64,000 bases of DNA from an uncultured Clostridia bacterium (GTDB lineage Bacteria > Bacillota > Clostridia > TANB77 > CAG-465): contig CALXES010000002.1 of assembly GCA_944387385.1 (NCBI GenBank), positions 42,136 to 106,135 on the forward strand, written 5' to 3'. Positions 9,940-55,791 of the stretch are shown in pieces; positions within the stretch are counted from its first letter, which is position 1; every line of letters begins with the position of its first letter. The notes under the pieces were generated by a model. That model was not told where the DNA came from, did no database searches, and saw only the letters and a program-made list of their open reading frames with translations. A program made the translations under genes and the position numbers.

Positions 9940-11124
9940 TTAATTCCTTTCTCTAAAATATCCCACTTCTTCTGTAAGGTCATACACAACTCTAACTGAT
10001 ATCTTTTCATTATCTTCATAATCTATTATTAAATTTGAATTAATAATCTGACCATTTCTTGTATTTGGTAATACTTCATTATTTATATAATCTTCTGAAT
10101 CTTTTTGTGCTATTTGAAGTATTTCTTCTTTACTACGTACTCTATCAACCAAATTATATATGTTAAATTTATATATATCAAAAGAGAGTGTATTACCAAA
10201 AAAATTAATACTACTACTGTCTTTAATTATATCATATTTTAAAGATTTATCCAAATAATTTATGTAATTTTCTTTATTATTTATGCTTATACCAATGCTA
10301 TATTTAGTCTTACCTGTATATTCCTTCTCTTGTACCGTATAATAGTAGTCTGATTTATACTCATATTCAGTTTTTAAAACTACAAGTCCCTTAGCACTAA
10401 CATCTTTTGTTTCTAATAAATCACTATAAATTTTTCCCTCAATTAATATTCTACCTTCTTCTACATATTCTCCAGTACTAAGAATCGGAGTTCCATTTTC
10501 TGCAATTATTTTTTCTATAACTCCACTTTTATCTGAAACTATATCCCCTATTGAATTATCATTAACAGCACTATCTGGTAATCTTGTTTTTTCTACAATG
10601 TTTATATATACATTTGTACCTTCAATATCTACCCCTATCCATGCAGCATCAGGTAATAATACTCTTAAATTCGTAACTATTTTTTTTGTTTGAAGTCCAA
10701 GTTTATTTTTTCCAATATACACACCAGAATCTTCCAAAGCTTTATATACTTCTTCTGTAGTAATATACGAATTACCTATAACTTCTATATTCCATATAAA
10801 TGACGTTGATAAAATACATAGTAATACAAAAATTCCAAGAAGAAAAATAACTACTCTTCTTTTTCTATACTTAAATACCTTAAAATATAGTCCTTTTTTA
10901 TTTAGTATTTTTACTTTACATTTTGTCTTTTTTGTTATTTTTCTTAATTTTTTAAAGTCCTTTATTGCAATACTAAATCTTACTATACCACTTCCAATTG
11001 TCTGTATATTCCAGATTTTTATATTATTAATTTTACATAGATTTATATATCTCTCTGTAAAAAAACCTTCAACTTCAACTTCTACAGTTCCATTAATTTT
11101 TTTTATTCCTTCCTCTAAATTCAT
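9940..11124 (-). CDS. yqfD: sporulation protein YqfD (stage IV sporulation-associated membrane protein)
   Basis: N-terminal GTVEVEVEGFFTERYINLCKINNIKIWNI pattern, single TM in the middle, about 394 aa; sits downstream of yqfC as in Bacilli/Clostridia. Confidence 0.7.
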   Translation of the reverse strand: MNLEEGIKKINGTVEVEVEGFFTERYINLCKINNIKIWNIQTIGSGIVRFSIAIKDFKKLRKITKKTKCKVKILNKKGLYFKVFKYRKRRVVIFLLGIFVLLCILSTSFIWNIEVIGNSYITTEEVYKALEDSGVYIGKNKLGLQTKKIVTNLRVLLPDAAWIGVDIEGTNVYINIVEKTRLPDSAVNDNSIGDIVSDKSGVIEKIIAENGTPILSTGEYVEEGRILIEGKIYSDLLETKDVSAKGLVVLKTEYEYKSDYYYTVQEKEYTGKTKYSIGISINNKENYINYLDKSLKYDIIKDSSSINFFGNTLSFDIYKFNIYNLVDRVRSKEEILQIAQKDSEDYINNEVLPNTRNGQIINSNLIIDYEDNEKISVRVVYDLTEEVGYFRERN

Positions 11125-11131
11125 ACTACTC

Positions 11132-11461
11132 CTATCTATTTAAAAATCCAACATTACTAATATCACCAGATACTAACACTTCTTCATCAGTAATCTCGTT
11201 AATTTTTAAATTTTTTCCATCCAAAATTATATATACATTTTGAGTCTGTATCTTTATATAATTATCATAGTAATCTACTATATTATTCTTTCCTTCTATT
11301 AAAATTTGTGAATTTTCAATCATAGTAATCCTAGCAAAATCACTTGATAGTTCTTTAGGAAGCTCTAATGTCTCAATAAAACGTTCTTTAACTTCTGAAA
11401 GTTTAGATTTAAAATTTATTTTTTTAAAAAGTTTTTTTCCCTCTTTTTTTAGACTCTTCAC
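11132..11461 (-). CDS. yqfC: sporulation protein YqfC
   Basis: 109-aa protein directly upstream of yqfD; conserved two-gene spore module. Confidence 0.55.
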   Translation of the reverse strand: MKSLKKEGKKLFKKINFKSKLSEVKERFIETLELPKELSSDFARITMIENSQILIEGKNNIVDYYDNYIKIQTQNVYIILDGKNLKINEITDEEVLVSGDISNVGFLNR

Positions 11462-41977: not shown

Positions 41978-42949
41978 CTATCTAGTTTTGCTTAAAGACA
42001 ATTCTCTATCAATTTCTGATTGTAGCTCATTAAGCTGTGAATTATATTCCTCTTTAAGTCCTTCATCCAATACAAGTTCATCAATATTTCTTCTTGCGGC
42101 TCTAATTCTATTAAAATATGCATATGGATTTGATAGTATTTCTTCATGTGTTCTACTTCTTTCTCTTTCAAGAGCTTCTATACTTCCTTCTACATCTAAA
42201 CCTTGTTCAGATTTTATACTAGTTGAAAATAGTAGTTCAGGCTCTCCAATCTTTTTGCCTCTACCATATATGTTTATACTATCACAAATTCCTCTTTGAG
42301 CAAATTCTCTTAATTCTCCAATAAATGGAGTATACATTCTATCATGGTCTGCTTTAGTTACCCTTCTTGGATCAAAACCATTTCTTATCAAATCAATGTC
42401 TCTTTCTATACAACACAAAAAACTCTCACTTCCATCAATTGCAATAATATTTATATCTATGTCATAACCGCCATCTTTAAATTGAGACAATTCTTTATAA
42501 TCTGCTTCTCCTCTGTGCATAACCTTTTCTTTTACAACATTTAATTTATTATCTATTACTGTTTTATGTACAATCTCATTACCAGGCTTAACAAATTTTC
42601 TTGTTGCTTTATAAAAATCATCAGGAGAAAGTTTTAATAAATCTTCATAGTGTCTATGAAAAGTAGCCAACTTATCTGCATCTAACTCTACGACACATTC
42701 ACCATTTTTACCATATTTTTCATCTCTAATATATTTTCTTAATGTTGTTTTTCCAGATCCAGCTTGTCCTACTAAATACGAAATTGTAGGATGTTGAGAA
42801 GAAAAATCCTTCATACACTTAGCATCCGGTTTTTGCTCTTTTGCCTCTATTAATAATTGAGTAAAGAAATTACTTATACCTTGTTTAAATTCTTCATCTG
42901 TTAAATCATATTTATCATAATTCATTTTTTCTACCATCCTTTTAATCAT
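41978..42949 (-). CDS. zeta-toxin-family P-loop kinase-like protein with C-terminal coiled-coil extension
   Basis: Walker A GQAGSGKTT about 60 aa from N-terminus as in zeta/PezT; 323 aa; start overlaps upstream 56-aa ORF (ATGATTAA). Confidence 0.55.
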   Translation of the reverse strand: MIKRMVEKMNYDKYDLTDEEFKQGISNFFTQLLIEAKEQKPDAKCMKDFSSQHPTISYLVGQAGSGKTTLRKYIRDEKYGKNGECVVELDADKLATFHRHYEDLLKLSPDDFYKATRKFVKPGNEIVHKTVIDNKLNVVKEKVMHRGEADYKELSQFKDGGYDIDINIIAIDGSESFLCCIERDIDLIRNGFDPRRVTKADHDRMYTPFIGELREFAQRGICDSINIYGRGKKIGEPELLFSTSIKSEQGLDVEGSIEALERERSRTHEEILSNPYAYFNRIRAARRNIDELVLDEGLKEEYNSQLNELQSEIDRELSLSKTR

Positions 42950-43112
42950 ATATTTCTTTTATCATTTTTTCTTTAGTATTCATAAAATCTTTAACTTTTT
43001 CTTTAAGTTCTTCATCATTTAATTTTCCACTTTTAATACACTTAGCAACATTAAATTGATACATATATTCTATAATTGCTATCTCATTTATCTTATTACT
43101 AAATTCATTCAT
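42950..43112 (-). CDS. small ORF (56 aa, MNEFSNKINEIAIIEYMYQFNVAKCIKSGKLNDEELKEKVKDFMNTKEKMIKEIYD) translationally coupled to the zeta-like kinase; antitoxin-like position
   Basis: ATG at 43112-43110 with RBS AGGAGAAAC; stop overlaps the kinase start codon; missing from the ORF track, whose shortest listed ORF is 60 aa. Confidence 0.35.
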
Positions 43113-43122
43113 ATTGTTTCTC

Positions 43123-43659
43123 CTATTTTATTATATACTCCCACCCAGGTTGCCACGCTTTAGTTTTTCTCCAATCATTTTTATTTGCATCTTCCCAAGA
43201 GATATTTTTAGTTAATACTTCAAAAGCAAGCTGTGGCGCTCTGTGTGCAACAATTCCAATTGTTTTACCTTCATAATTATTTTTTAAAAAAGTTATAAAA
43301 TCCTTTATTCTATTTTCAACATCTTTTAATGATTCACCATTTGGAAATGGATTATCAACATGTTCTTCGTATACAACTAAAGACTTATCTTCTCCATCCA
43401 AATCCCCGTAATTACATTCTCTTAGTCTTTTATCCTGTATATGTTCAACATTAGGAAAAGCTAAGTTTGCAGAATCAATAGCTCTTACCAAATCTGATGT
43501 GAATATAACGTCAAAATGAGTATCTTTTCTTAATCTTCCCAAATTAATAGCTCTTTCTCTTCCCAAATCTGTTAACTCAGCTTGCTTCCAACCACTACAT
43601 TTTCCAGAAGCATTATCAGTTGTTGTTCCATGAACAAAATAAATAACTTTTGTCTCCAT
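43123..43659 (-). CDS. histidine phosphatase family protein (phosphoglycerate-mutase-like), noncanonical VHG in place of RHG (start placed at METKVIYF)
   Basis: VIYFVHGTTTDN...GWKQAELTDLGRERA...DVIFTSDLVRAIDSA pattern of His_Phos_1; ORF-track N-extension overlaps the upstream gene. Confidence 0.6.
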   Translation of the reverse strand: METKVIYFVHGTTTDNASGKCSGWKQAELTDLGRERAINLGRLRKDTHFDVIFTSDLVRAIDSANLAFPNVEHIQDKRLRECNYGDLDGEDKSLVVYEEHVDNPFPNGESLKDVENRIKDFITFLKNNYEGKTIGIVAHRAPQLAFEVLTKNISWEDANKNDWRKTKAWQPGWEYIIK

Positions 43660-43678
43660 ACCTACATCATCCCTTCCT

Positions 43679-44890
43679 TTATATTTCTTTTTCATACGTT
43701 TTCTTAAATTTACGTTGAAATTCCATTCTCTTATCAAACTCTTCTTGCGAAATCTCCCCTTCTCCTCTATCAATTTTTACTAAAGGATAATCTGGAAAAT
43801 TCATTATACTTGCTCCTCCAATCTTTGTAAAAAGTCTAGGAGTAACATTTAAAAACACATCATTCTGTTTGTAATCTGCATTCGGATCAATATACTTATT
43901 TGAAAAAATTCCAACAGAATATGCAAGCCATCTTAGAGTAATAAATGTATCCCTTAGCTCAGGATTTTTACTAAGTTCTTGAAATCTCTCTGGTGTTATA
44001 GAATCAAGCCTTTTAGATAGAGAAATTAATGAAGCTTTTACATCATCCTTCATCTTAGACTTGTCTATATTTTGAGCTATAACGTCTTGTGGTAACAATA
44101 TATGTCTTGTTCCTTCAGGTGGCACAGTATTTTTCCCTGTAAAAGCCATTAATATTTCTGCATATTTTTGCTCTAACCTTAAATGCATAGTTTTTAAAAC
44201 TTTTGTAAAGTTTGGATCTTGTAAAAATTGCCATCCTTTTTTGATTCTATATATAGATGAATATTCAATGTCTTGATCTCCACAAGTTAAATTTACTGGT
44301 TCTAAGTATTCTCTTAATTCATCAGTATCTAACGTCTCTCTAATTAGCGCTTGATTATATTCAAACATAGGATCAACAACTGATCGATAATAATATGGAG
44401 ATACTTTATCTTTATCAATTTCAGTTATTTTATCCATTGTTTCTTCTTTCCATGAATTAAGATGCAAATGAAATGGTTTTTTAGACATTCCACTAGTTCT
44501 ATCAGTTGTAAATTCATCATAATTAAATACTAAATATGGATAAGCATTACTTAAACCAAATTGATCAATTGTATCTTGACTTGTTAAAAAATCAATATAA
44601 TTATAGCCCATTTGAAAAACATATCTTGCTGCGTCATCAGACAAAGATGTAATTGAGCTCTTACATACAGAATCTGTTGATTGTAACATCATTTCATAAT
44701 CTGAATGTGGCTTAAATTTAGGTGCAAGAGTTATATAATCTGTTGCATCTGCACTCTTTATCTTATGTTCGCTGATTATTCCATTAAAAGGGATTTTTTC
44801 ACATTTGTTTTTTAAGTAAAAAGGTGTTTTAAACATCTCTTTATCAATTCCTGGAATTTTTAAGTGATATACTTTATAATTTTTGTCCAT
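43679..44890 (-). CDS. hypothetical 403-aa protein, no recognizable family
   Basis: Open frame in operon; contains KPFHLHLNSW (H-phi-H-phi-N, HIT-like) but otherwise unassignable. Confidence 0.5.
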   Translation of the reverse strand: MDKNYKVYHLKIPGIDKEMFKTPFYLKNKCEKIPFNGIISEHKIKSADATDYITLAPKFKPHSDYEMMLQSTDSVCKSSITSLSDDAARYVFQMGYNYIDFLTSQDTIDQFGLSNAYPYLVFNYDEFTTDRTSGMSKKPFHLHLNSWKEETMDKITEIDKDKVSPYYYRSVVDPMFEYNQALIRETLDTDELREYLEPVNLTCGDQDIEYSSIYRIKKGWQFLQDPNFTKVLKTMHLRLEQKYAEILMAFTGKNTVPPEGTRHILLPQDVIAQNIDKSKMKDDVKASLISLSKRLDSITPERFQELSKNPELRDTFITLRWLAYSVGIFSNKYIDPNADYKQNDVFLNVTPRLFTKIGGASIMNFPDYPLVKIDRGEGEISQEEFDKRMEFQRKFKKTYEKEI

Positions 44891-44928
44891 ATTATTCTAC
44901 CATTCCTTTCTACATTTATTACTATATT

Positions 44929-47229
44929 TTAAGTTGTAATTGGTCTACATTGTATTAGATATAAAGTATCATTTTCACATGCCCACTCGACATCAACATC
45001 GCAATTATAATAGTCTTCTAATTTCTTTCCGATTTCACCTATTTTAGTTATATTATCTATTGGTATACCATCCTGATTTATTTGATCTGTTATCTCAAGT
45101 GTTTCCTGATCAACAAAAAATCTATCAGGTATTACTCTATTGTCTACAAGCTTTGATGCCACGCCCTTGCAACACTCTATTATTATACTATCTCTATTAT
45201 TAGTTACAGGATCTTTGGTAAACATTACACCAGCATAATCTGCATTAATCATTCTTTGTATTACTATTCCACCAAATAGATTATCTGAATCTTCATCCTG
45301 ATATTTTTCAAGCCCAAATCCTAATAAAGATTTCCAGCACTTCCTTATGCTTTTTATTAAAAAATCTGATGTAGAGCAAAATAGCTCTGTAACATATTGT
45401 CCTGCAAAAGATTTGTTTTCCTTGTCTTCATTAGATGAACTACTTCTTACAGCATATGTATTATTAGAAAAATCTAGTATGTCTTCAAATATAGATGACG
45501 GTATCTCAACTTTATCTATTATATCTAAAATTTCATCTTTATACTTATTTAAGTCAGTACCACATTTCATATATTCATCTAATTGATTTGATTCTTTTAA
45601 AATAGCTTTAAAGAACTTCTTACCTAAAAAGTATGCTTCTGGAATATTTAAGCCTTGTCTTTTCATTAAAGATAAATTATAAGCCTTGTTACCTACTTCG
45701 TTCATGTCTACATCCTCATCAAATAGGTAAATTCCTTCATATAATTTATTATTGATTTTTTGACTTTCCTTTTCTTCTAACAATCTAATCGTTCCATTAG
45801 TCGCATCCACTTCAATTAAATCACCATTTTTTAATATATTTGTTATTCCTTTAAAAGCAATTATACATGGTTTCTTTAGTTCTCTACTTATAACTGAAGC
45901 ATGACTTAATATTCCTCCCTCTTCTGTTACTATAGCTTTTGATTTTACAATTGCATTCATAAAATCAAAATCTGTTCCATAAGTTACTAGAATTTCTCCT
46001 TCTTTTAATTTATTGCTTTCTTCAAAAGTCAAACAAATTCTAGCTTTTCCTGTAACCTTACCAGAAGATGCACACACACCCTTTTTATTTTTAAGTACAC
46101 TTACATCATCTTCATTTATTTTTAAATTATTATAGTATTCTTCTCTTGACTCCATTCCACTATAAATTAGTGATACATTTGATATATATACTCCTTCTTT
46201 TCTTTTTTCCACTTCTTCCTTATCTAACTTCTCATTTAATACCAACAAATTATAAAAATCGTCCATTATATAAAATTTAAAGTCTTGATTTAATTCTGGA
46301 AATCTATTTTTTATTTCATCAAGTATTGTATTTCTATACCTAACGCTTTTTCCTAATAGTGCTTTTTTTCTATCTCTCATAATTCCAAGTTTTGCTGCAA
46401 GATCAAATAACTCAGATAATTGAGAATTATTTAATTTTTTATAAACAGATTGTTTTTGAGTAACTATTCTATTAGGATAAGTTTCTATTTCGTCTATTTT
46501 ACTTTTTATTTCATCCTTACTTAAGTTTTTAAGCTTATTATAACGCTCAACAACTACACTCCTTGAAAGTGGTTTACTTCCGTAACCAATAGTTATATAA
46601 TCATATTCTTTTAAGTGATCATCAATTAACTTATCTATATCAAGAGATTCTGCATTATATAAGGCTTTAAGAAAAGCTAATTCTTCTTTTATAACTGCTG
46701 TATTATCTTCTAAAGAATATAATGTAGTTACCTCATCAGCATTAATATATTGTAAAGGATTTAAATCATTTATTGCCTTTTGTAATCCCAGTTCAACTGG
46801 AGCTAGATTTATATAGTATATTTGATTTAAAGTTATTTGATACCAATTAAATAATATTTCATATAACTCAGCATTACTTAATTTATTTAAGTCGTTTTTT
46901 TGAAGTTTTTCTAAAAAATCATCTAATAGTGTTTCTCTTCTGTTATAATACCAATAACACTTTTCTATAATATTGGGATTGCTATACTTTTGTGGATTTT
47001 TAAATTGATTAGATATATTAAATAATGCGTTTTCCCAGTCTTTTTGTGGAGTATATGACCACAATTTATTATCTTGATAATAAAGACACACATTTTTAAA
47101 CCTAAACCAGTTTATATCAGAACTATACTGATCATATAAGTCATAAATAAATTGCACCGATAACATGGTATCGACATTTCTGTAGTTAATTTGTTTCCAA
47201 TTTTTAATTTTATTTGTACATAAATACAT
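44929..47229 (-). CDS. PEP-utilizing-enzyme-family phosphotransferase with reversed domain order (unknown N-domain, phosphohistidine swivel domain, C-terminal PPDK_N-like nucleotide-binding domain)
   Basis: Swivel-domain motif GGILSHASVISRELKKPCI (res about 420-440); C-terminal third resembles the PEP synthase N-terminal ATP-binding domain; RBS AGGAGG. Confidence 0.65.
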   Translation of the reverse strand: MYLCTNKIKNWKQINYRNVDTMLSVQFIYDLYDQYSSDINWFRFKNVCLYYQDNKLWSYTPQKDWENALFNISNQFKNPQKYSNPNIIEKCYWYYNRRETLLDDFLEKLQKNDLNKLSNAELYEILFNWYQITLNQIYYINLAPVELGLQKAINDLNPLQYINADEVTTLYSLEDNTAVIKEELAFLKALYNAESLDIDKLIDDHLKEYDYITIGYGSKPLSRSVVVERYNKLKNLSKDEIKSKIDEIETYPNRIVTQKQSVYKKLNNSQLSELFDLAAKLGIMRDRKKALLGKSVRYRNTILDEIKNRFPELNQDFKFYIMDDFYNLLVLNEKLDKEEVEKRKEGVYISNVSLIYSGMESREEYYNNLKINEDDVSVLKNKKGVCASSGKVTGKARICLTFEESNKLKEGEILVTYGTDFDFMNAIVKSKAIVTEEGGILSHASVISRELKKPCIIAFKGITNILKNGDLIEVDATNGTIRLLEEKESQKINNKLYEGIYLFDEDVDMNEVGNKAYNLSLMKRQGLNIPEAYFLGKKFFKAILKESNQLDEYMKCGTDLNKYKDEILDIIDKVEIPSSIFEDILDFSNNTYAVRSSSSNEDKENKSFAGQYVTELFCSTSDFLIKSIRKCWKSLLGFGLEKYQDEDSDNLFGGIVIQRMINADYAGVMFTKDPVTNNRDSIIIECCKGVASKLVDNRVIPDRFFVDQETLEITDQINQDGIPIDNITKIGEIGKKLEDYYNCDVDVEWACENDTLYLIQCRPITT

Positions 47230-47245
47230 TAATATTTCCTCCTCT

Positions 47246-47986
47246 CTAATTAATATATACTTGCTTTATGTATTCAATAAACTTATTATAGTTTTCATCT
47301 TTATCCCTTGGATGTTTTAGGGGATTTTTTACCTTTTTATATAAGTTATTTTTACCCATCAAATGAATATAATCTCCTAATTTAGCAGCCTCTTCTATAT
47401 AATGTGTAGATAATATAGAAGTAAATTTTTCTGTTGCAAATTCATCTAGAAAAATTTTATGGATGTTTTCTTTTGAAATAAAATCCAAAGCACAAAAAGG
47501 CTCATCAAGTAATATTATTTTAGGATTAATTACTATACTTTTAGCCAAGGCAACCTTTTGCTTTAAACCAACAGACAATTCATGAGGATAAAAATTTCTA
47601 ATATCATATAAATCATATCTTATTAAAATTTCTTTTAATTCCTTATCATTAATATCTTTTTTAATACTATCAAGAGCAAATTTAATGTTTTGTTTTACAC
47701 TTAGCCATGGTAATAAATTATTTTCCTGTAATACCATTGTAAGTGGTATATTACTACTTTTAATGTATGTGTCATCAAAAACTATATTACCGCTATCATA
47801 TTCTTCTATTCCCGCTATCACTTTTAAAAGAGAACTCTTTCCACATCCGGACACACCTAATAAACAATGAACTTTTCCTCTTTCAAATTTTATATCAAAA
47901 TCATTAAATACTTTCTTATAATTTTTATTACCAATTTTATAATTTTTTACTAGATTTTCTACTTTTATTGCATATTCTTCTTTCAT
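47246..47986 (-). CDS. ABC transporter ATP-binding protein (NitT/TauT family)
   Basis: Walker A GVSGCGKSS, signature LSVGLKQK, Walker B ILLDEP. Confidence 0.85.
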   Translation of the reverse strand: MKEEYAIKVENLVKNYKIGNKNYKKVFNDFDIKFERGKVHCLLGVSGCGKSSLLKVIAGIEEYDSGNIVFDDTYIKSSNIPLTMVLQENNLLPWLSVKQNIKFALDSIKKDINDKELKEILIRYDLYDIRNFYPHELSVGLKQKVALAKSIVINPKIILLDEPFCALDFISKENIHKIFLDEFATEKFTSILSTHYIEEAAKLGDYIHLMGKNNLYKKVKNPLKHPRDKDENYNKFIEYIKQVYIN

Positions 47987-47992
47987 ATAGAT

Positions 47993-48634
47993 TTAAGCTC
48001 TCCTTACCCAAAACAGAACTTTTTTAGATATTTTCTCTATTATAAATGAAATTAAAGCTCCTAGTAATCCCATAAATAATATTCCTATAAAAACCTCTTC
48101 ATAATTTAATAAAGTATAAGCTTTCCATGTATAGTATCCTAATCCTTCTTTTCCACTGATCATTTCTGCCATAATTACACTTGCCCAAGAACCACTTATT
48201 CCAAGCATTAATGATGTAAATATACCTGGCATTATTGCTGGAAGTAATATTTTAAAAAATCTATCTTTAAAATTTAACTTATATAACCTAGAAATTATCA
48301 AATAATCTTGTGGAATACTTAAAAACGATCTATATATATTTAAAAACATTGGAAAAAAAGCACCAATAAAAGTTATACACAAAATGCTTGTATCTATCGT
48401 ATTGCACAGTATAATTGTAATTGGCACCCATCCTGCATTTGGGATAGGTCGTAGTAACTCTAAAATTGGATATAATATCTTTCTTAAAGGCTTAAATTCA
48501 TAAATAATTAAAGCTAGTACTAAAGATGAAAAAAATGCTAAACTAAAACCAATTAAAACATTCTTTAGAGATATTAAAATATTAATATATAAATCGTAAC
48601 TTGTTATTTCATTTATAAACACTCTCAAATCCAT
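47993..48634 (-). CDS. ABC transporter permease (NitT/TauT family)
   Basis: 213 aa, five or six TM helices, 6 nt from ATPase gene. Confidence 0.75.
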   Translation of the reverse strand: MDLRVFINEITSYDLYINILISLKNVLIGFSLAFFSSLVLALIIYEFKPLRKILYPILELLRPIPNAGWVPITIILCNTIDTSILCITFIGAFFPMFLNIYRSFLSIPQDYLIISRLYKLNFKDRFFKILLPAIMPGIFTSLMLGISGSWASVIMAEMISGKEGLGYYTWKAYTLLNYEEVFIGILFMGLLGALISFIIEKISKKVLFWVRRA

Positions 48635-48656
48635 TTTGTTACCTTCTTTTTATTAA

Positions 48657-49649
48657 CTAATTATATATATACTTTTCAATATCAAACTCTTTAATTTGCT
48701 CTAAAGATACTAAAAAATTCAACTTATCATTTAAGGCTTCAATATCTTCTTCATTTATATTTGAATTCCATTCAATAGCATTAATTTCGTCAAATACTAC
48801 ATCATATGAGAATCCACTTTCTTTTTCCATGATTTTTGCTGCTTCTTCTTTATTATTAATAATAAAATCATGAGCTTCTTTTAATGACTCAATAAAAGCT
48901 TGTACTAACTTTTCATCTTTTTCTTTTAAATTATTATTTATAATAACACCTGCCAAATAATCTACTTGTGATTCTTCTCCATCTACAATAACTCTTGTAT
49001 CTATCTCTTTTTGCAAATATTTAGGATATGGCTCCCATATTGCAAAAGCATCTGTTTTATTAGTACTTAATAATTGTATTGCCATTGAAACATCTTGATG
49101 TACAATTTCAACATCATTTAATAGATTATATTTTTCAAGTATTTTCATTAGCATATAATGAGCACTTGAGCCTATAGGTACTGAGACTGTTTTCCCTTTT
49201 AAATCATAAACACTATTTATATTACTATCTTTTGATGCTATAATACTTTGATTTTTTCCATTTTTTCCCGTTCCATCTAAAGCAATCAAGCTAGCATCAT
49301 ATTCACTTAGACTATCCGCTTTATACATATTCAATAACAAAGGCATATCTCCCATAAAACCAATATCTATTTTATTAGAAATCATACTAGTATTAATAAT
49401 AGACCCAGAAATTTCGTCATGCCAAACTATCCTAACTTTCTTATCTGGATATAGTTCTTGCACTTTTTTCTCATAAATTTCTAGGTCTTTTATTATTAGT
49501 GCTCCCCAAGTCTGGGATGTCACACTTTGATATCCTATATTAATTTCAAGCGTATTTTTCCTATTAACTGCAATAACCGCAATAAGGGCTATAAATAAAA
49601 TAGCTGTTAATATAAATATACCTTTTTTACTAAATATCATTTTATTCAT
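48657..49649 (-). CDS. ABC transporter substrate-binding protein, NMT1/THI5-SsuA/TauA family
   Basis: N-terminal anchor helix, then periplasmic-binding fold typical of sulfonate/nitrate/pyrimidine-precursor binders. Confidence 0.75.
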   Translation of the reverse strand: MNKMIFSKKGIFILTAILFIALIAVIAVNRKNTLEINIGYQSVTSQTWGALIIKDLEIYEKKVQELYPDKKVRIVWHDEISGSIINTSMISNKIDIGFMGDMPLLLNMYKADSLSEYDASLIALDGTGKNGKNQSIIASKDSNINSVYDLKGKTVSVPIGSSAHYMLMKILEKYNLLNDVEIVHQDVSMAIQLLSTNKTDAFAIWEPYPKYLQKEIDTRVIVDGEESQVDYLAGVIINNNLKEKDEKLVQAFIESLKEAHDFIINNKEEAAKIMEKESGFSYDVVFDEINAIEWNSNINEEDIEALNDKLNFLVSLEQIKEFDIEKYIYN

Positions 49650-49849
49650 TTTCGTCCATCCTTAATTTTAAAATTCATTAATTCTAAAATATTATTATGG
49701 TGCAAATTATAACATCTTTATATGAGTTTTTCAATATAAATTTTAATTTTTTACGCAAATTGTTTGCAAAATTTGTCTTAATAGTTTTTTATGGATAAAA
49801 TTCAATATAAAAATTTCTTTATTATTATTTTTTAACTTCGTATTTTTAA

Positions 49850-49878
49850 TTGAAACTTTTTTTAGTTTGTAGTATCAT
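49850..49878 (+). promoter_or_regulatory. candidate sigma-A promoter for the thyX-like operon (TTGAAA-17-TATCAT)
   Basis: TTGAAA 49850-49855, 17-nt spacer, TATCAT 49873-49878; about 30 nt upstream of RBS GGAGG. Confidence 0.4.
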
Positions 49879-49909
49879 ATTAATAGAGTTTTTTTGGAGG
49901 TATGATAAT

Positions 49910-50566
49910 ATGATTAAGGTAGAAAATTTAGAAGTTCTAAATTTTGAAGGTGCATTAAGAGGTATGCGAAATCCTTTAGAATCATGGGACAAAAGTGATA
50001 GTTATTATGATAAAGACACAGGAAAATATATAATAGGACCAAAAGATTTAGCACTTGCTTTAAAATTAACAAAAGCAGGTTCTGATCATTCTAAATTTTT
50101 AAGGCAAATATTCGTATCAATGGATATTACAGCTCCAATGTCATGGTGGTGGGATTTTGATACATATAAAGTTGCTACAGTAAGAAATAGTACAAGTAGG
50201 ATGCACAAGCTTGGAAGTAGAATATTAACATTTGATGATTTTAGTGTTGATGACGAAAAAGGAAATACAAATATAACACCATTTAGAAAATACGTTTTAG
50301 AAGATTTAAACAGAAGAATCAAAGAATATCAGCAATTAAAAAATGATGGCAAAATGGAAGAAGCAATGGCGCTATGGAGAGAAATTGTTTTTGATTCTCC
50401 TCAAAGTTATAATTTTAAATCAACATGGACTGGTAATTATGAAATAATGAGAAATGTTTATAGAGCAAGAAGAAATCATAAACAAAGAGAATTTAGAGAT
50501 TTCTGTAAAATTATAGAAAATGAATTTCCATATAGCGAATTAATAACAACCCCAAGAGAAGGATAG
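49910..50566 (+). CDS. ThyX-fold (flavin-dependent thymidylate synthase-like) protein lacking the RHR/dUMP-binding arginines (start placed at ATG 49910; ORF-track start is an upstream TTG)
   Basis: Aligns with Thermotoga ThyX in core segments (HSKFLRQIFVSMDITAPMSWWW; WTGNYEIMRNVYRAR) from memory, but RHR is replaced by TYK and the NAR arginine by NYE. Confidence 0.5.
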   Translation: MIKVENLEVLNFEGALRGMRNPLESWDKSDSYYDKDTGKYIIGPKDLALALKLTKAGSDHSKFLRQIFVSMDITAPMSWWWDFDTYKVATVRNSTSRMHKLGSRILTFDDFSVDDEKGNTNITPFRKYVLEDLNRRIKEYQQLKNDGKMEEAMALWREIVFDSPQSYNFKSTWTGNYEIMRNVYRARRNHKQREFRDFCKIIENEFPYSELITTPREG

Positions 50567-50576
50567 GTGAGAAAAT

Positions 50577-51152
50577 ATGGCAAATTCAAAACTAATAGTT
50601 GTTGAGGGGCCACAAGGAGTCGGAAAAACAACTGTAACTGATTATATTAGACATGGTCTAAAATATACTAATTTATATAGATTATGTGGTACATCTGATA
50701 GTACACCAACGGGAAAAAAGAAAGCAACTGATATGTACTGGGACTTAATTGAATATATAAAAAAAATGGAAAACAAAAGTATAAACTTGGTTTTTGATAG
50801 AACATTTTTTACTGAAGAAATATATAGTAGACTAAAATTTAAAGAATATGATTTTTCTGATGAATATGAAAAGCTACTTGATAACTTTAGCAAATTAGAT
50901 TTTGATATATACTATATAACACTTTTTTTAGAGAATACAGAGCTATTTAAAAAAAGATTAGTAAGAGATGATAAAGCTATTACTGAATATGCTAAATTTA
51001 ATATAGAAAGTAGTAAAAAACAACAAAAAGAATATTTAAAGATGGCAGATGAAATTTCATCAAAATATCCAAATATAAAAGTATTCAAAGTGTCTAATGA
51101 TACCGATGAACAAGAGTTAAAATTAAAAATAAAAAACATACTTAACTTTTAA
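50577..51152 (+). CDS. P-loop (d)NMP/deoxynucleoside kinase-like protein (thymidylate-kinase fold)
   Basis: IVVEGPQGVGKTT P-loop at N-terminus, FDRTFF (DRY-like) motif, LVRDDK lid-like segment; 191 aa. Confidence 0.55.
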   Translation: MANSKLIVVEGPQGVGKTTVTDYIRHGLKYTNLYRLCGTSDSTPTGKKKATDMYWDLIEYIKKMENKSINLVFDRTFFTEEIYSRLKFKEYDFSDEYEKLLDNFSKLDFDIYYITLFLENTELFKKRLVRDDKAITEYAKFNIESSKKQQKEYLKMADEISSKYPNIKVFKVSNDTDEQELKLKIKNILNF

Positions 51153-51187
51153 TATCATACCATCTTAGTATTACATGGAGGTTAAAT

Positions 51188-52468
51188 ATGACAAACGAAG
51201 AAATAATATCATATATTTATAAAGAAAGAAAAAGTAATAAAGAAAAAAAAGATAATAGCAGAATGTTAAGTTTTATGAACGAACTTAATAATCCACAAAA
51301 CAATTTAAAATTTATACATATAGCTGGTACAAATGGCAAAGGTTCAACTACTACAATGCTTGCAAATGTATTAAAAAACAGTGGTTATAAAGTTGGAAAG
51401 TTTATTTCTCCGTACGTAATTTCTTTTAACGAAAGAATACAAATAAACAATGAATTTATATCAGATGATGAATTATCAAAATATATTAAACAAATAGACC
51501 CTATTATTTTAAAAATGGAGCAAAATGGAGATGCACCAAACGGTTTTGAAATAATAACTGCAATTGCTTTTATGTACTTTAATGATAAAAAATGTGACTT
51601 TGTATGTTTAGAAACTGGTTTAGGAGGAAGATTAGACCCAACTAACGTAATAACTACAACAATAATGTCTATAATAACACTTATAGATTATGATCACACA
51701 AAATTTTTAGGAAATACTTTAGAGGAAATAGCTTCTGAAAAATGTGGAATTATAAAAAAAGGAAAGGTAACTGTTACTTATCCTAAACAAAAGAAAAATG
51801 TTTTAGATACAATTAGAAGCTTTTGCTTAAAAGAAAATAATAAACTATATATTCCAAGTTTAAAACTATTAGATATTATAAAATGTAATCATAACATTAA
51901 CTATTTTAGTTATAAAGGAACATATTACAAACTTAACCTTATAGGAAAACATCAAATATATAATGCTTTAATGGTAATTTTAGCATCTAATATTATGATT
52001 AATCTTGGGTATAAAATATCCTTTTCCGCAATAAACAGTGGAATATCAGATACAAGTTTTCCAGCAAGATTAGAAAAATTTGATAATAATCCTACTATCT
52101 ATATAGATGGCTCTCATAATGTTGCTGGAGCTGAAGCACTTAAAGATTTTTTATACGAATACAAAGGAAAGAAAAACTATGCTATAATGTCTTTTACAGA
52201 AGGAAAAGATTATTCAAAATTTATTGAAGAAATAGGTTCATATTTTCAAGAACTAATATTTGTTGAATACAAAAATAAATATAAAAAAGCGGAAAATATA
52301 AAAAATCTAGAGAAAGTAGCATCAAAATTAGGTATAAAATCTAAATCATTTGATTCAATTACCAAAGCATATGAATATGTGAAAAGTCAAGAAAATTCTG
52401 ATTTATTGTTGGTCACAGGTTCATTATATCTTGCATCTGATTTTAGAAATATGTTAACAGAAGAATAG
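51188..52468 (+). CDS. folC: folylpolyglutamate synthase/dihydrofolate synthase (Mur ligase family)
   Basis: HIAGTNGKGST P-loop, 426 aa. Confidence 0.9.
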   Translation: MTNEEIISYIYKERKSNKEKKDNSRMLSFMNELNNPQNNLKFIHIAGTNGKGSTTTMLANVLKNSGYKVGKFISPYVISFNERIQINNEFISDDELSKYIKQIDPIILKMEQNGDAPNGFEIITAIAFMYFNDKKCDFVCLETGLGGRLDPTNVITTTIMSIITLIDYDHTKFLGNTLEEIASEKCGIIKKGKVTVTYPKQKKNVLDTIRSFCLKENNKLYIPSLKLLDIIKCNHNINYFSYKGTYYKLNLIGKHQIYNALMVILASNIMINLGYKISFSAINSGISDTSFPARLEKFDNNPTIYIDGSHNVAGAEALKDFLYEYKGKKNYAIMSFTEGKDYSKFIEEIGSYFQELIFVEYKNKYKKAENIKNLEKVASKLGIKSKSFDSITKAYEYVKSQENSDLLLVTGSLYLASDFRNMLTEE

Positions 52469-52566
52469 TTTTTTATTATTTTTAAACAAATAACTTGATT
52501 TTTATTTTCTTTTATGCTAAAATGTTTAAGTAAATTGTTAACGTATACATAAGGAGGTGCAAGTTA

Positions 52567-52821
52567 ATGCCAAATATAAAATCTGCTAAAAAAAGAGTTA
52601 AAATTATTGAAACTAAAACTCTACAAAACAAAGCTACAAAAAAAGCATATAAAGAAGCAATAAAAGCTTTTGAAGCTGCTGTTAAAGAAAATGCAAAAAA
52701 TAAAGAAGAATTATATAATGAAGCTATTAGTAAAATAGATAAAGCTTGGTCTAAAGGTGTATTAGCAAAAAATACTGCATCTAGAAAAAAATCAAGTTTA
52801 GCTAAAATGCTTAATAAATAG
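52567..52821 (+). CDS. rpsT: 30S ribosomal protein S20
   Basis: [18 protein letters not shown]-terminus; RBS AAGGAGGTG. Confidence 0.95.
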
Positions 52822-52835
52822 TTTATAAATAAATT

Positions 52836-52862
52836 TCACCAGCATAGCTGGTGTTTTTTTGT
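52836..52862 (+). terminator. rho-independent terminator after rpsT
   Basis: CACCAGC-ATA-GCTGGTG hairpin followed by TTTTTTT. Confidence 0.7.
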
Positions 52863-52948
52863 CATTTTTTTAGTTAACATTTAATTTCTCATAAGTTGTA
52901 TTTTTTATATTACTATGATAAAATTTAAAGTATTATAAAGGAGTGTAT

Positions 52949-53584
52949 ATGGAATATTTATTTACGTTTTTAGAGGGAATAGCAAGCTTTATTTCGCCTT
53001 GTCTTCTTCCGATGATACCAATATATATATCATATTTTATTGGAGAAGAAGAAAAAAACAGCACCAAAAAAATAATTAATGCTTTAGGATTTGTAATAGG
53101 GTTTACATTAGTATTTTTAATCCTTTCCATATTTGCAAGTAGTCTAGGAATACTAATTAGTAATAATATAAAATATATAAAAATAGCTTTTGGAATAATA
53201 ATTATATTTTTAGGTTTAAATTATATGGAAATCATAAAGTTAAAGTTTCTTAATAAATATAAAGTATTTAATGCAGACAAAAAAAACTTGAATTTTTTTA
53301 AAGCTTTAATTTTTGGAGTTGTATTCTCAGTTAGTTGGACTCCATGCATCGGAACATTTTTAAGTTCAGCTTTACTTCTTGTAGCTAAACATCAAGATAT
53401 GTTAAAGGGTATTTTACTTATGCTTATCTATTCTATAGGACTTGGAATACCTTTTATTATTTCAGTTGTTTTAATAGAAAAGTTAAAACAGGCTTTTGAT
53501 ATAATAAAGAAAAATTATAATATTATAAAAAAAGTATCAGGAGCTATTTTAATTATTATAGGAATTTACACTATATTTTTTTAA
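52949..53584 (+). CDS. ccdA: cytochrome c-type biogenesis / thiol-disulfide transporter CcdA (DsbD beta domain)
   Basis: Cys in TM1 (SPCLLPMIPIY) and TM4 (TPCIGTFL); six TM helices. Confidence 0.8.
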   Translation: MEYLFTFLEGIASFISPCLLPMIPIYISYFIGEEEKNSTKKIINALGFVIGFTLVFLILSIFASSLGILISNNIKYIKIAFGIIIIFLGLNYMEIIKLKFLNKYKVFNADKKNLNFFKALIFGVVFSVSWTPCIGTFLSSALLLVAKHQDMLKGILLMLIYSIGLGIPFIISVVLIEKLKQAFDIIKKNYNIIKKVSGAILIIIGIYTIFF

Positions 53585-53595
53585 AGGAGATTTAA

Positions 53596-54015
53596 ATGAA
53601 GACTAAAATAAGTATTATTATTATTGTAATTATATTTATAGCCGGATTAATTTTTTTAAACATGTATATGAATAAATCTAAAAACGATACCTCTAGCAGC
53701 AATATTTCTGATGTTACTAGTCAAAATTTTGAAACAGAAGTATTAGAAAGTGATAAAGTTGTACTTGTCGATTTTTATGCTGATTGGTGCGAACCATGTA
53801 AAATATTTTCACCAATTCTTGAGGATATATCAAAAGAGTATGATTTTATAAAAGTTGTAAAAGTAAATATAGATAATGAAACTGATTTAGCCGAGCATTA
53901 TGGTGTTGCTTCGGTTCCAACACTAATTATACTAAAAAATGGTAAGGTTGTTGATAGAAGTGTAGGTGCAATAAGCAAACTGGCATTAAAAAACATGATA
54001 AAACAATTAAATTAA
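53596..54015 (+). CDS. membrane-anchored thioredoxin-family thiol-disulfide oxidoreductase
   Basis: WCEPCK active-site CxxC; N-terminal TM anchor. Confidence 0.85.
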   Translation: MKTKISIIIIVIIFIAGLIFLNMYMNKSKNDTSSSNISDVTSQNFETEVLESDKVVLVDFYADWCEPCKIFSPILEDISKEYDFIKVVKVNIDNETDLAEHYGVASVPTLIILKNGKVVDRSVGAISKLALKNMIKQLN

Positions 54016-54081: not shown

Positions 54082-55791
54082 TTAGTATCCTAATAATTTT
54101 AAAATAGCTAGTCCTACCTTTTCACCTTTTCCTTCATATGGCCACTCATTTATTGAATATCCCGGATCATCATTTATCTCTATGATTGAATAATCATTTT
54201 TATTTAAATCGTCTATTATTAAGTCAACACCACATACTTTTGCATTAAATGCATTAGCTGCCTTTTCAGACATCTCTTTAAAATATTGTGGTATATCATT
54301 TGTAACATCAAGGCTTTCTCCTCCTGTAGAACAATTTGAGTTTGTTCTCAAAAATACTCTTTCATCTTTTTGTGGTATAGTATCATATGTATAATTAGAT
54401 TTTTTTAAAAATTCTTCAACTGGTTTTTCAATTTTTACAGGAGTTCCAGTAAGAGCATGCCAAGGCTCTTTATTTTTTATATCTATAAGTTCTTTTATTG
54501 TAGATTTTCCATCACCTACAACACTTGCAACTCTTCTATGAGCAACGCTTATACATTTTCCATCTACAACTAAAAATCTATACTCTTTACCTTTTATATA
54601 CTGTTCAACCAACACATCCGAATCAAATTCAAAAGCATATTTTATTGCATTATTTATTTGATCTTTAGTTCCAGGTTTACTAAACACTGTTATACCAGTT
54701 CCCATGTTTGTGTTTCTTGGTTTAATTACTAGCGGCATACTATATAGATCTTTTATTAAATCTTCTATTTCTTCTTGTTCCATATCTTTAGTAAGTAAAA
54801 TAGCATCTGGAACACTTAGCCCCTTTTCTTTCATTATATTTTTTGATACTAATTTATCATCTGTCACTATTGGAAATATATATGAGTCTCTATCTGTTCT
54901 ATTTCCTTCAATTATATATTCTTTATGTCCTTCGTAATCCAACAAAGCAAAACTTGTTGTCTCATTTAGAATTTTATAGTCGATACCTTGTGATAAAGCA
55001 TCTTTAATCAATATAGCTGCTTCTGCTAATAACTTAGGATGATATTTTAATCTATATCTCTCATTATATCCTTCTAACATGTTATTTTTTAAAATGTCTA
55101 ATAGTTCTTTTTTAGTTAACCCTTTTAATTTATTTTCATTTCTATTTAATTGAGTGTTTTCTATAAAATCTTTACATCTTAAAGAGAATATCCTATTTAA
55201 ATCTCTTAAATCTACTTTATTACTCAAGCATGAGAATATTTCCAATATAATATACATTATTTCTTTTAGTTCTATCCCAACTCTATCCATTGGATTTAAT
55301 GTAATATTATTTATTGTTATATTATTATTATATTCAATTTTTATATCACCAAAAATCTCTTTAAAGTGACTAATTCTTTTATTAAGTTTATTAACTATGT
55401 TTTTATACATGTCCTCAATATTATCAGGTAAGATTATATTATTTTTTTCAGCTATTTCATATATCTTAGAATTTAGTGAAAATTCAATTGTTAAAAAACA
55501 TTTTTCTTCATTATCAAAACAAGGACTACTTGAATTCCACAACAGTTCATTTCTTTCAAATAATTCTAAAATAACAATATCTGTAATTTCTTGTAACTTT
55601 ATATAACATTCATGTAAATCTTCACAAATTGGTGTATTTATTAATAATTTCTTATCATTATCTGAAAATGTTATTAATTTATTTTTTAATCTATCACCAA
55701 AAGCTACTGGATGCTCTAGCCTAGATAAATTTCCATTACTATCACACCTTAAACTTTCTTTTTTTATTTTAATATTATAAATATTATTCAT
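54082..55791 (-). CDS. ATP-grasp ligase with uncharacterized 300-aa N-terminal domain (glutathione-synthetase/cyanophycin-synthetase-like C-terminal half)
   Basis: C-terminal half has ATP-grasp hallmarks: PLVIKP, EQYIKGKEYRFLVVDGK, NCSTGGESLDVT, IEINDDPG. Confidence 0.65.
   Translation of the reverse strand: MNNIYNIKIKKESLRCDSNGNLSRLEHPVAFGDRLKNKLITFSDNDKKLLINTPICEDLHECYIKLQEITDIVILELFERNELLWNSSSPCFDNEEKCFLTIEFSLNSKIYEIAEKNNIILPDNIEDMYKNIVNKLNKRISHFKEIFGDIKIEYNNNITINNITLNPMDRVGIELKEIMYIILEIFSCLSNKVDLRDLNRIFSLRCKDFIENTQLNRNENKLKGLTKKELLDILKNNMLEGYNERYRLKYHPKLLAEAAILIKDALSQGIDYKILNETTSFALLDYEGHKEYIIEGNRTDRDSYIFPIVTDDKLVSKNIMKEKGLSVPDAILLTKDMEQEEIEDLIKDLYSMPLVIKPRNTNMGTGITVFSKPGTKDQINNAIKYAFEFDSDVLVEQYIKGKEYRFLVVDGKCISVAHRRVASVVGDGKSTIKELIDIKNKEPWHALTGTPVKIEKPVEEFLKKSNYTYDTIPQKDERVFLRTNSNCSTGGESLDVTNDIPQYFKEMSEKAANAFNAKVCGVDLIIDDLNKNDYSIIEINDDPGYSINEWPYEGKGEKVGLAILKLLGY

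Follow-up and report, generated by a model that had tools for sequence, protein, structure and literature searches.

A probably phage-derived protein of the ThyX fold with a proposed rewired flavin and dUMP site is predicted to form thymidylate in gut Clostridia

Introduction

Thymidylate synthesis is essential, and to our knowledge only two families of thymidylate synthase are recognised, ThyA and ThyX. ThyX is a homotetramer that binds flavin adenine dinucleotide (FAD) at its subunit interfaces and forms deoxythymidine monophosphate (dTMP) in dependence on 5,10-methylenetetrahydrofolate (CH2-H4folate) and NAD(P)H; the RHR(X)7S motif commonly serves for its identification, and the enzyme is being explored as a target of antibacterials. 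Here we analyse a ThyX-like protein, termed ThyXL, which is encoded in a 64-kb stretch of DNA from an uncultured Clostridia bacterium (contig CALXES010000002.1; the whole stretch is called the window in the following). ThyXL has the fold of ThyX and lacks most of the motif, and we consider it probable that the protein is a phage-derived thymidylate synthase with a rewired site for the flavin and for deoxyuridine monophosphate (dUMP).

In ThyX, the RHR residues bind the phosphates and the ribityl chain of FAD together with Ser71 and Arg190 of the Mycobacterium tuberculosis enzyme, the latter corresponding to R165 of Thermotoga maritima ThyX (FDTS review, PMC6514825). The residues that hold the substrate dUMP, which lies beneath a Tyr lid, are R174, S88, R90, the residue equivalent to R74 and the first Arg of RHR; this Arg is in contact with the flavin, too (PMC6514825). 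A precedent for a ThyX-fold enzyme with shifted substrate specificity is PolB, a Streptomyces paralog of ThyX, which is described as a UMP/dUMP C5-methylase of polyoxin biosynthesis (Chen et al. 2016, cited in PMC5954106) and, as far as this citation goes, keeps the folate- and flavin-dependent C5 methylation. By this description, to which the comparison is confined, PolB stands beside a second thyX and is linked to an antibiotic, whereas ThyXL is found in DNA-precursor and replication modules and in housekeeping operons, with no second ThyX near it in the loci examined.

Results and Discussion

ThyXL is a remote homolog of ThyX

At the sequence level, the relationship of ThyXL to ThyX lies below the family thresholds. 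The protein reaches 16.4 bits (E = 0.008) with Pfam Thy1 (PF02511; gathering score 24.8) and 16.7 bits with TIGR02170, for which the threshold is 87.9; in searches of the PDB sequences with phmmer (ThyXL protein) and hmmsearch (family profile) no ThyX was found. Since sequence alone was too weak, a fold comparison was needed, and we used an AlphaFold2 model of the ligand-free monomer, built on 56 diverse homologs, with a mean pLDDT of 95.4. The best 50 Foldseek matches of this model in the PDB are all ThyX, from Helicobacter pylori and T. maritima (E = 6.5e-8, probability 1.00, TM 0.57-0.70, 16-18% identity), and in a viral structure library the top matches are uncharacterised phage proteins, followed by annotated ThyX. 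ThyXL therefore shares with ThyX (T. maritima TM0449 and the H. pylori enzyme) the fold, with a TM of up to 0.70, and a length of about 220 residues, at a sequence identity of only 16-19%.

Profile comparisons lead in the same direction. Aligned by hhalign to a ThyX profile of 27 sequences from canonical phage ThyX loci, the ThyXL family profile gave E = 7.5e-5 (probability 62%, 150 columns); significance was reached only with this profile, and the alignment to a single ThyX sequence remained insignificant (E = 0.096). The family HMM also matches two canonical viral ThyX that still bear RHR (E = 2e-7 and 4e-6), and one family member, P0238, clears the Pfam Thy1 threshold with 29.3 bits versus 24.8. 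Besides, remote homologs in phiCD211 and Fnu1 carry R-Y-H at the RHR site, which is an intermediate state. Because the fold, the profile-profile and HMM matches, P0238 and the R-Y-H sequences agree, homology of ThyXL to ThyX is established as real but far under the family thresholds. The assignment to the ThyX fold, which a sequence-only reading of the window had made by comparison with the Thermotoga enzyme, is thus borne out by structure and by the profile comparisons.

The active site looks rewired

For the comparison of individual residues, the T. maritima reference sequence was verified against PDB 1kq4 (100% identity), which fixed the numbering, and the register was taken from a MAFFT alignment and two hhalign runs, which were concordant. 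The resulting correspondences are listed in Table 1, with family counts from 56 sequences that are 41-55% identical to the window protein. ThyXL has equivalents of R25, S30, H53, S88, N163, R174, H178 and E182. It differs from ThyX in the replacement of RHR by TYK, of R165 by Glu, of R90 by Met and of the lid Tyr91 by His, in the exchange of E58/H59 for Arg/Gln, in a Lys at the position of the FAD-phosphate Ser, and in the lack of a counterpart for R147. Hence RHR is absent from the RHR(X)7S motif, and its Ser is kept as S96.

Table 1. Equivalent positions of T. maritima (Tm) ThyX and ThyXL and their conservation in the ThyXL family.
ThyX position	ThyXL residue	Family count
Tm R25, S30	R20, S25	56/56, 56/56
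Tm H53	H60	48/56
Position of M. tuberculosis Ser71 (FAD-phosphate Ser)	K62	56/56
Tm E58	R65	56/56
Tm R74	W81	K in 37/56
Tm R78-H79-R80 (RHR)	T85-Y86-K87	53/56, 56/56, 50/56
Tm S88	S96	55/56
Tm R90	M98	52/56
Tm Y91 (lid Tyr)	H99	55/56
Tm R147	no counterpart
Tm N163	N176	42/56
Tm R165 (Arg of WTVNAR)	E178	E 40/56, Q 8/56, A 8/56
Tm R174	R187	56/56
Tm H178	H190	56/56
Tm E182	E194	54/56

The loss of RHR and of the Arg in WTVNAR had already been noticed in the sequence-only reading, and the conservation in the 56 sequences now shows that these substitutions are fixed across the family. The spacing of the two ThyX motifs quoted there was one residue off; in the final register N176-Y177-E178 of ThyXL aligns to N163-A164-R165. 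A different picture emerges for the role of the lost residues, which had been taken as binders of the dUMP phosphate. R165 is an FAD-phosphate ligand and not a dUMP binder, and RHR together with R165 mainly binds the phosphates and the ribityl chain of FAD (PMC6514825), while the equivalents of the uracil-contacting S88 and R174 are retained. Within the dUMP-contact set R74/S88/R90/R174, two positions are thus kept (S96 and R187) and two replaced (M98 for R90, W81 for R74), and according to the alignment it is the two most uracil-proximal residues that survive.

Judged from the sequences of the family, the new invariant charged residues K62 and R65, together with K87, lie at or next to former cofactor-binding positions, which looks like a rewiring of the site and not like its decay. 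We therefore propose an active site in which S96 and R187 on the uracil side as well as H190, E194, N176, R20 and S25 are kept, the ThyX arginines that hold the phosphates of FAD and dUMP (R78, R80, R165, R90 and R147) are lost, and K62, R65, K87, Y86 and H99 are gained as new basic or polar residues that may compensate for them. With this site, ThyXL would move the methylene group of CH2-H4folate to C5 of dUMP and thereby form dTMP, probably via a reduced flavin as in ThyX. A point that weighs against this proposal is the extent of the exchange: most residues that bind the dUMP phosphate or the FAD phosphates in ThyX are gone (R74 to W, R78 to T, R80 to K, R90 to M, R165 to E, R147 without counterpart), so that another cofactor, substrate or product is possible.

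ThyXL is under purifying selection and belongs to a large family found mostly in phages

For the analysis of selection, 17 orthologs from species-level metagenome-assembled genomes (MAGs) of the same clade were compared with the gene of the window, at dS values of 0.26-1.16, which we call near-saturated. The dN/dS of ThyXL is 0.04-0.15, which is under that of the kinase (0.06-0.18) and FolC (0.11-0.22) encoded downstream and similar to that of rpsT (0.04-0.20). Ten residues of ThyXL are invariant among the 56 family sequences, and about 19 more are conserved in at least 90% of them.

These values bear directly on the idea that ThyXL is an inactive relic of ThyX or a non-enzymatic regulator that binds a nucleotide or folate. 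The loss of the signature motif and the scores below the Pfam and TIGRFAM thresholds would fit such a protein. Nevertheless, we regard it as extremely improbable in view of the low dN/dS, the invariant residues, the size of the family (3,216 clusters at 50% identity), the homing endonucleases inserted in ThyXL genes and the steady place of the gene in nucleotide-metabolism modules. For the first three of these reasons, the catalytically dead paralog that had been considered as an alternative is no longer a convincing description of the protein.

The 3,216 clusters were found at E <= 0.001, and 468 of them at E <= 1e-30, when 1.84 billion cluster representatives were searched exhaustively. In IMG/VR, ThyXL occurs on at least 598 viral contigs; it matches PHROG 6721 ("unknown function") with E = 8e-63, and homologs are present in cultured phages of Clostridium, Enterocloster, C. 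difficile, Fusobacterium and Desulfovibrio. Among the 120 closest homologs listed, none has a precomputed Pfam domain and only three have names, two of them being hypothetical proteins and the third an NCBI MAG protein called "FAD-dependent thymidylate synthase". Full-text literature searches yielded no description of the family. In addition, at least six cluster representatives (P0137, P0146, P0180, P0258, P0269 and P0197) carry HNH/NUMOD4 homing-endonuclease modules inside the ThyXL gene. Homing endonucleases typically target essential nucleotide-metabolism genes of phages.

Among the matches listed, those closest to ThyXL outside the bacterial clade come from phages (loci L029 and L020, 72% identity), and the next nearest, at about 55% identity, are prophage-like. 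The L020 gene (10001-10648 of this locus) comes from a contig labelled as a Desulfosporosinus sp. MAG (JARLHU010000184.1), and its surroundings are clearly those of a phage, with DNA polymerase, primase, SNF2 helicase, MazG and terminase. We therefore rejected this homolog as a sign of a wide bacterial distribution; it suggests instead either that phages and the Clostridia clade exchanged the gene recently or that a phage contig was binned wrongly. Taken together, the family forms a branch of ThyX (Thy1) that is large, has no name of its own and has diverged strongly; it is found mostly in phages of anaerobic gut Firmicutes, and the best explanation for the window gene is that a low-GC, spore-forming lineage of gut Clostridia took ThyXL from a phage into its chromosome.

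The bacterial operon contains a kinase of the thymidylate kinase fold

In the bacterial clade, 17 species-level MAGs share the order ThyXL - kinase - (FolC) - rpsT. FolC occupies its position in 14 of the 17 related loci and is missing from three, and rpsT follows the kinase or FolC in 16. This confirms the operon of ThyXL with folC and a kinase similar to thymidylate kinase (Tmk) or deoxynucleoside kinases that the sequence-only reading had described. A folate dependence of ThyXL is plausible, and FolC would provide the polyglutamylated folate cosubstrate, while the adjacent kinase may convert dTMP to dTDP.

The kinase of the window has the Tmk fold with a P-loop (GPQGVGKT) and the catalytic Asp-Arg after strand 3, which is part of an FDRTF segment with an invariant D74 and with R75 in at least 90% of the sequences; R127 and R130 are invariant as well. 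Its model (pLDDT 88.5) has its best Foldseek matches in the Tmk of yeast, vaccinia and Vibrio cholerae (E = 1.5e-8 to 2.6e-6), the sequence matches phrog_761 ("thymidylate kinase", E = 4e-12), and the closest relatives outside the clade are found in large Bacillus phages. The description as Tmk- or deoxynucleoside kinase-like is therefore well founded. Unlike established members of the Tmk families, the protein stays below the thresholds of PF02223 Thymidylate_kin (19.7 bits versus 27) and TIGR00041 (23.2 bits versus 83.25), only the P-loop part (residues 1-34) aligns to them, and the fold is almost equally near to deoxynucleoside kinases, all of which weakens the assignment to dTMP that our proposal involves.

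In this context, a sister genome is informative. At 10664-11359 of its locus (L019), a different kinase of 231 residues lies between ThyXL and rpsT, folC being absent from the locus, and this kinase passes Pfam Thymidylate_kin with 47.1 bits versus 27 and matches the NCBIfam dTMP kinase with E = 3e-24. We rejected orthology of the two kinases, as there is no similarity beyond the P-loop; two unrelated kinases thus fill the same slot, and the sister genome represents a non-orthologous replacement inside a conserved operon.

The kinases are also relevant to the idea, put forward in the sequence-only reading, that ThyXL uses an unphosphorylated substrate, converting deoxyuridine to thymidine or acting on a free base, with the adjacent kinase serving as a deoxynucleoside kinase. 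The window protein indeed lacks the dUMP-phosphate residues R74, R78 and R147 of ThyX, and the model of the kinase resembles deoxyadenosine and deoxynucleoside kinases nearly as closely as it does Tmk. On the other hand, a Tmk-family protein takes the kinase slot in the sister genome, the dUTPase and dCMP deaminase found next to ThyXL in phages yield dUMP and not deoxyuridine, and a phosphate could be bound by new basic residues, namely R20, K62 and R65, which are invariant, K87 (50/56) and K191 (49/56). In addition, most family members have a Lys at the R74 position (37/56). We thus consider an unphosphorylated substrate very doubtful.

Phage neighbourhoods fit a role in thymidylate synthesis

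The gene order in phages is consistent with the formation of dTMP by ThyXL. In one phage locus (L024), the order is NrdD - NrdG - dCMP deaminase - ThyXL - dUTPase, which suits a thymidylate synthase because dCMP deaminase and dUTPase both make dUMP. The 100-kb phage PMBT24 encodes a dUTPase, a class III ribonucleotide reductase (NrdD/NrdG) and, two genes upstream of ThyXL, a deoxynucleoside monophosphate (dNMP) kinase, and has no annotated thymidylate synthase; in four viral loci, ThyXL is immediately followed by the gene for a dNMP kinase of this type. Phage phiCTP1 has NrdD and glutaredoxin and likewise no thymidylate synthase, and in ProddE ThyXL is located between DNA polymerase and an exonuclease, followed by MazG, a kinase and NrdD/NrdG.

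To extend this view, neighbours were clustered for 80 viral loci with ThyXL and 80 viral loci with canonical ThyX (L029-L108 and L114-L193). Both share their commonest neighbour, DUF3310 (23/80 ThyXL versus 42/80 ThyX loci), and the niche also includes NrdD (17/80 versus 40/80), NrdG (10/80 versus 29/80) and dUTPase (12/80 versus 37/80). In P0238, DUF3310 (PF11753) is even fused to the C-terminus of ThyXL, which suggests that this domain works together with thymidylate synthases. The shared neighbours of canonical ThyX, the phage gene between dCMP deaminase and dUTPase and the Pfam-valid Tmk after ThyXL in the sister genome all speak against a substrate other than dUMP, which had been the favoured idea of the earlier annotation.

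A tblastn search with Escherichia coli ThyA and the ThyX of T. maritima and M. tuberculosis as queries covered 1.93 Mb: the window, 17 loci from MAGs, 80 viral loci and three phage genomes that are essentially complete (phiCTP1, PMBT24 and ProddE). Neither ThyA nor ThyX was detected in this DNA at E <= 1. The evidence leans towards ThyXL as the sole thymidylate synthase candidate of its genome.

Three points of the context temper a role of ThyXL in making dTMP. For the bacteria, the absence of ThyA and ThyX applies to the 64 kb of the window and about 20 kb from each of the 17 relatives; the viral contig sets are redundant, so that the neighbour counts are to be read qualitatively only; and the context cannot tell methylation of dUMP from hydroxymethylation, because phages that replace thymine use the same neighbour genes. 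Indeed, dCMP deaminase, dUTPase and dNMP kinase are also typical neighbours in phages that contain hydroxymethyluracil.

ThyXL might therefore make a C5-modified pyrimidine nucleotide other than dTMP for the modification of phage DNA, such as 5-hydroxymethyl-dUMP or the product of UMP or dCMP methylation, in which case the gene in the bacteria would be of phage origin, domesticated for a role outside housekeeping metabolism. Such a product would agree with the overwhelmingly phage-borne family, whose nearest relatives outside the clade are phage genes as well, with the neighbours that fit hydroxymethyluracil phages too, and with the replacement of the flavin-binding RHR and R165 and of the lid Tyr (Y91 to H99), because of which the reduction step could be altered; PolB, as it is described, also provides an example of a neofunctionalised ThyX paralog (PMC5954106). 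Against this stand the bacterial ThyXL, which is fixed beside rpsT and folC with a dN/dS near 0.06, and the Pfam-valid Tmk of the sister genome. No glycosyltransferase, DNA kinase or other hypermodification gene was seen among the annotated frequent neighbour clusters, many clusters being left unannotated, and the invariant equivalent of R174, which binds O4 of uracil, disfavours cytosine but not hydroxymethylation. On balance, a product other than dTMP appears distinctly unlikely to us.

Implications

We therefore return to dTMP formation as the function that we predict for ThyXL. The analysis establishes the fold, the homology, the conserved residues, purifying selection and the genomic setting of the protein; its substrate, product and cofactor and the compensating role of the new residues are inferred. 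What is new here is a large, unannotated branch of ThyX that does without most of the motif and probably still works in thymidylate synthesis. Should ThyXL indeed act as a thymidylate synthase, a widespread solution is missed by surveys in which genomes or phages count as free of such an enzyme, ThyX inhibitors aimed at the RHR/FAD pocket may fail on it, and its rewired site would offer a natural experiment on the set of ThyX residues that the chemistry needs. Moreover, ThyXL is a clear case of a nucleotide-metabolism gene of phages that became fixed in a bacterial housekeeping operon.

A more far-reaching view, which we offer tentatively and consider unlikely, is that ThyXL represents a third and unrecognised class of thymidylate-forming enzyme, which would combine the ThyX fold with a different solution for the cofactor (a differently bound FAD, FMN or another reductant) or with a product like 5-hydroxymethyl-dUMP. 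A lineage of gut Clostridia and hundreds of gut phages would then depend on it as their sole thymidylate synthase, and surveys based on motifs or Pfam would be blind to it.

Layout of the locus and neighbouring genes

The window comes from the chromosome of a spore-forming Clostridia bacterium and has a low GC content (about 25%). It contains a gene for the YabG peptidase; judging from the order of the open reading frames, a ribosomal-protein operon appears to be present as well. The features of the ThyXL operon are summarised in Table 2. The coordinates and gene calls for ThyXL, the kinase and FolC agree with those of the sequence-only reading, with support from the open reading frames, the ribosome-binding site and the TIGR01499 match, and the size of the divergent intergenic region had been given correctly, too.

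Table 2. Features of the ThyXL operon and its flanks (window coordinates).
Feature	Position	Strand	Remarks
Intergenic region, 260 bp	49650..49909	+	Upstream of the operon, up to the divergent ABC gene; promoter-like sites and GGAGG ribosome-binding site at 49897-49901
ThyX-like protein (ThyXL), 218 aa	49910..50566	+	ThyX fold, TYK replacing RHR
P-loop nucleotide kinase, thymidylate-kinase fold, 191 aa, putative dTMP kinase	50577..51152	+
FolC (folylpolyglutamate synthase / dihydrofolate synthase family), 426 aa	51188..52468	+	TIGR01499
rpsT (presumably ribosomal protein S20), 84 aa, possibly co-transcribed	52567..52821	+	Conserved downstream neighbour
First terminator-like hairpin 3' of the operon	52837..52853	+	CACCAGCATAGCTGGTG followed by a T-run

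The ATG of ThyXL lies 8 nt after the GGAGG sequence, and the length of the protein and its MIK start are identical to those of homologs. The genes are closely spaced, with gaps of 10 bp between ThyXL and the kinase, 35 bp between the kinase and folC and 98 bp between folC and rpsT, and the hairpin after rpsT is the sole terminator-like site on the + strand in 49910-53000. A promoter-like sequence, TTGAAA-17-TATCAT, is found at 49850-49878, the count of promoter-like sites being not above that of shuffled sequence, and another one at 52495-52523 precedes rpsT. No Rfam riboswitch was detected at E <= 1 in the 260-bp leader, and an Rfam scan of the entire window gave nothing above the gathering scores. 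FolC matches TIGR01499 with E = 1e-105 and 354.3 bits versus a cut-off of 162.65 and carries both PF08245 and PF02875, the middle and C-terminal domains of Mur ligases. The 84-residue product downstream is taken to be S20 from its translation.

On the opposite strand, the intergenic region borders a divergent cluster (41978-49649) that encodes an SsuA/NMT1-type binding protein, a permease and an ATPase, and also a 403-residue protein without family match, a histidine phosphatase and a zeta-toxin-like kinase. A 766-residue PEP-utilising enzyme of this cluster has an unusual domain order, with an unassigned N-terminal region of about 380 residues, a swivel His domain (409-479) and a PPDK_N ATP-grasp domain (510-716). 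A control region shared by ThyXL and this import/phosphotransfer operon had been assumed, but the adjacency is found in only one of the 17 related genomes, and there only in part. We therefore rejected a functional tie between ThyXL and the divergent ABC/PPDK-like operon: there is no synteny in the relatives, and L003 alone keeps the PPDK-like gene, without the transporter. As the ABC-transporter/PPDK-like operon is not syntenic with ThyXL, the shared 260 bp have no functional implication. The cluster as such is kept in L003 minus the transporter.

Directly after rpsT, a CcdA/DsbD-like membrane protein and a membrane-anchored thioredoxin are encoded at 52943-54015 on the + strand; among the related loci, this pair is present in L003 and L006 only. 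On the - strand, a gene at 54082-55791 encodes a 569-residue protein that matches the ATP-grasp half (GshB-like or cyanophycin-synthetase-like) of the bifunctional GshAB. The glutamate-cysteine ligase domain of this protein is only an 89-residue fragment, and the gene adjoins one for a 341-residue protein without family match.

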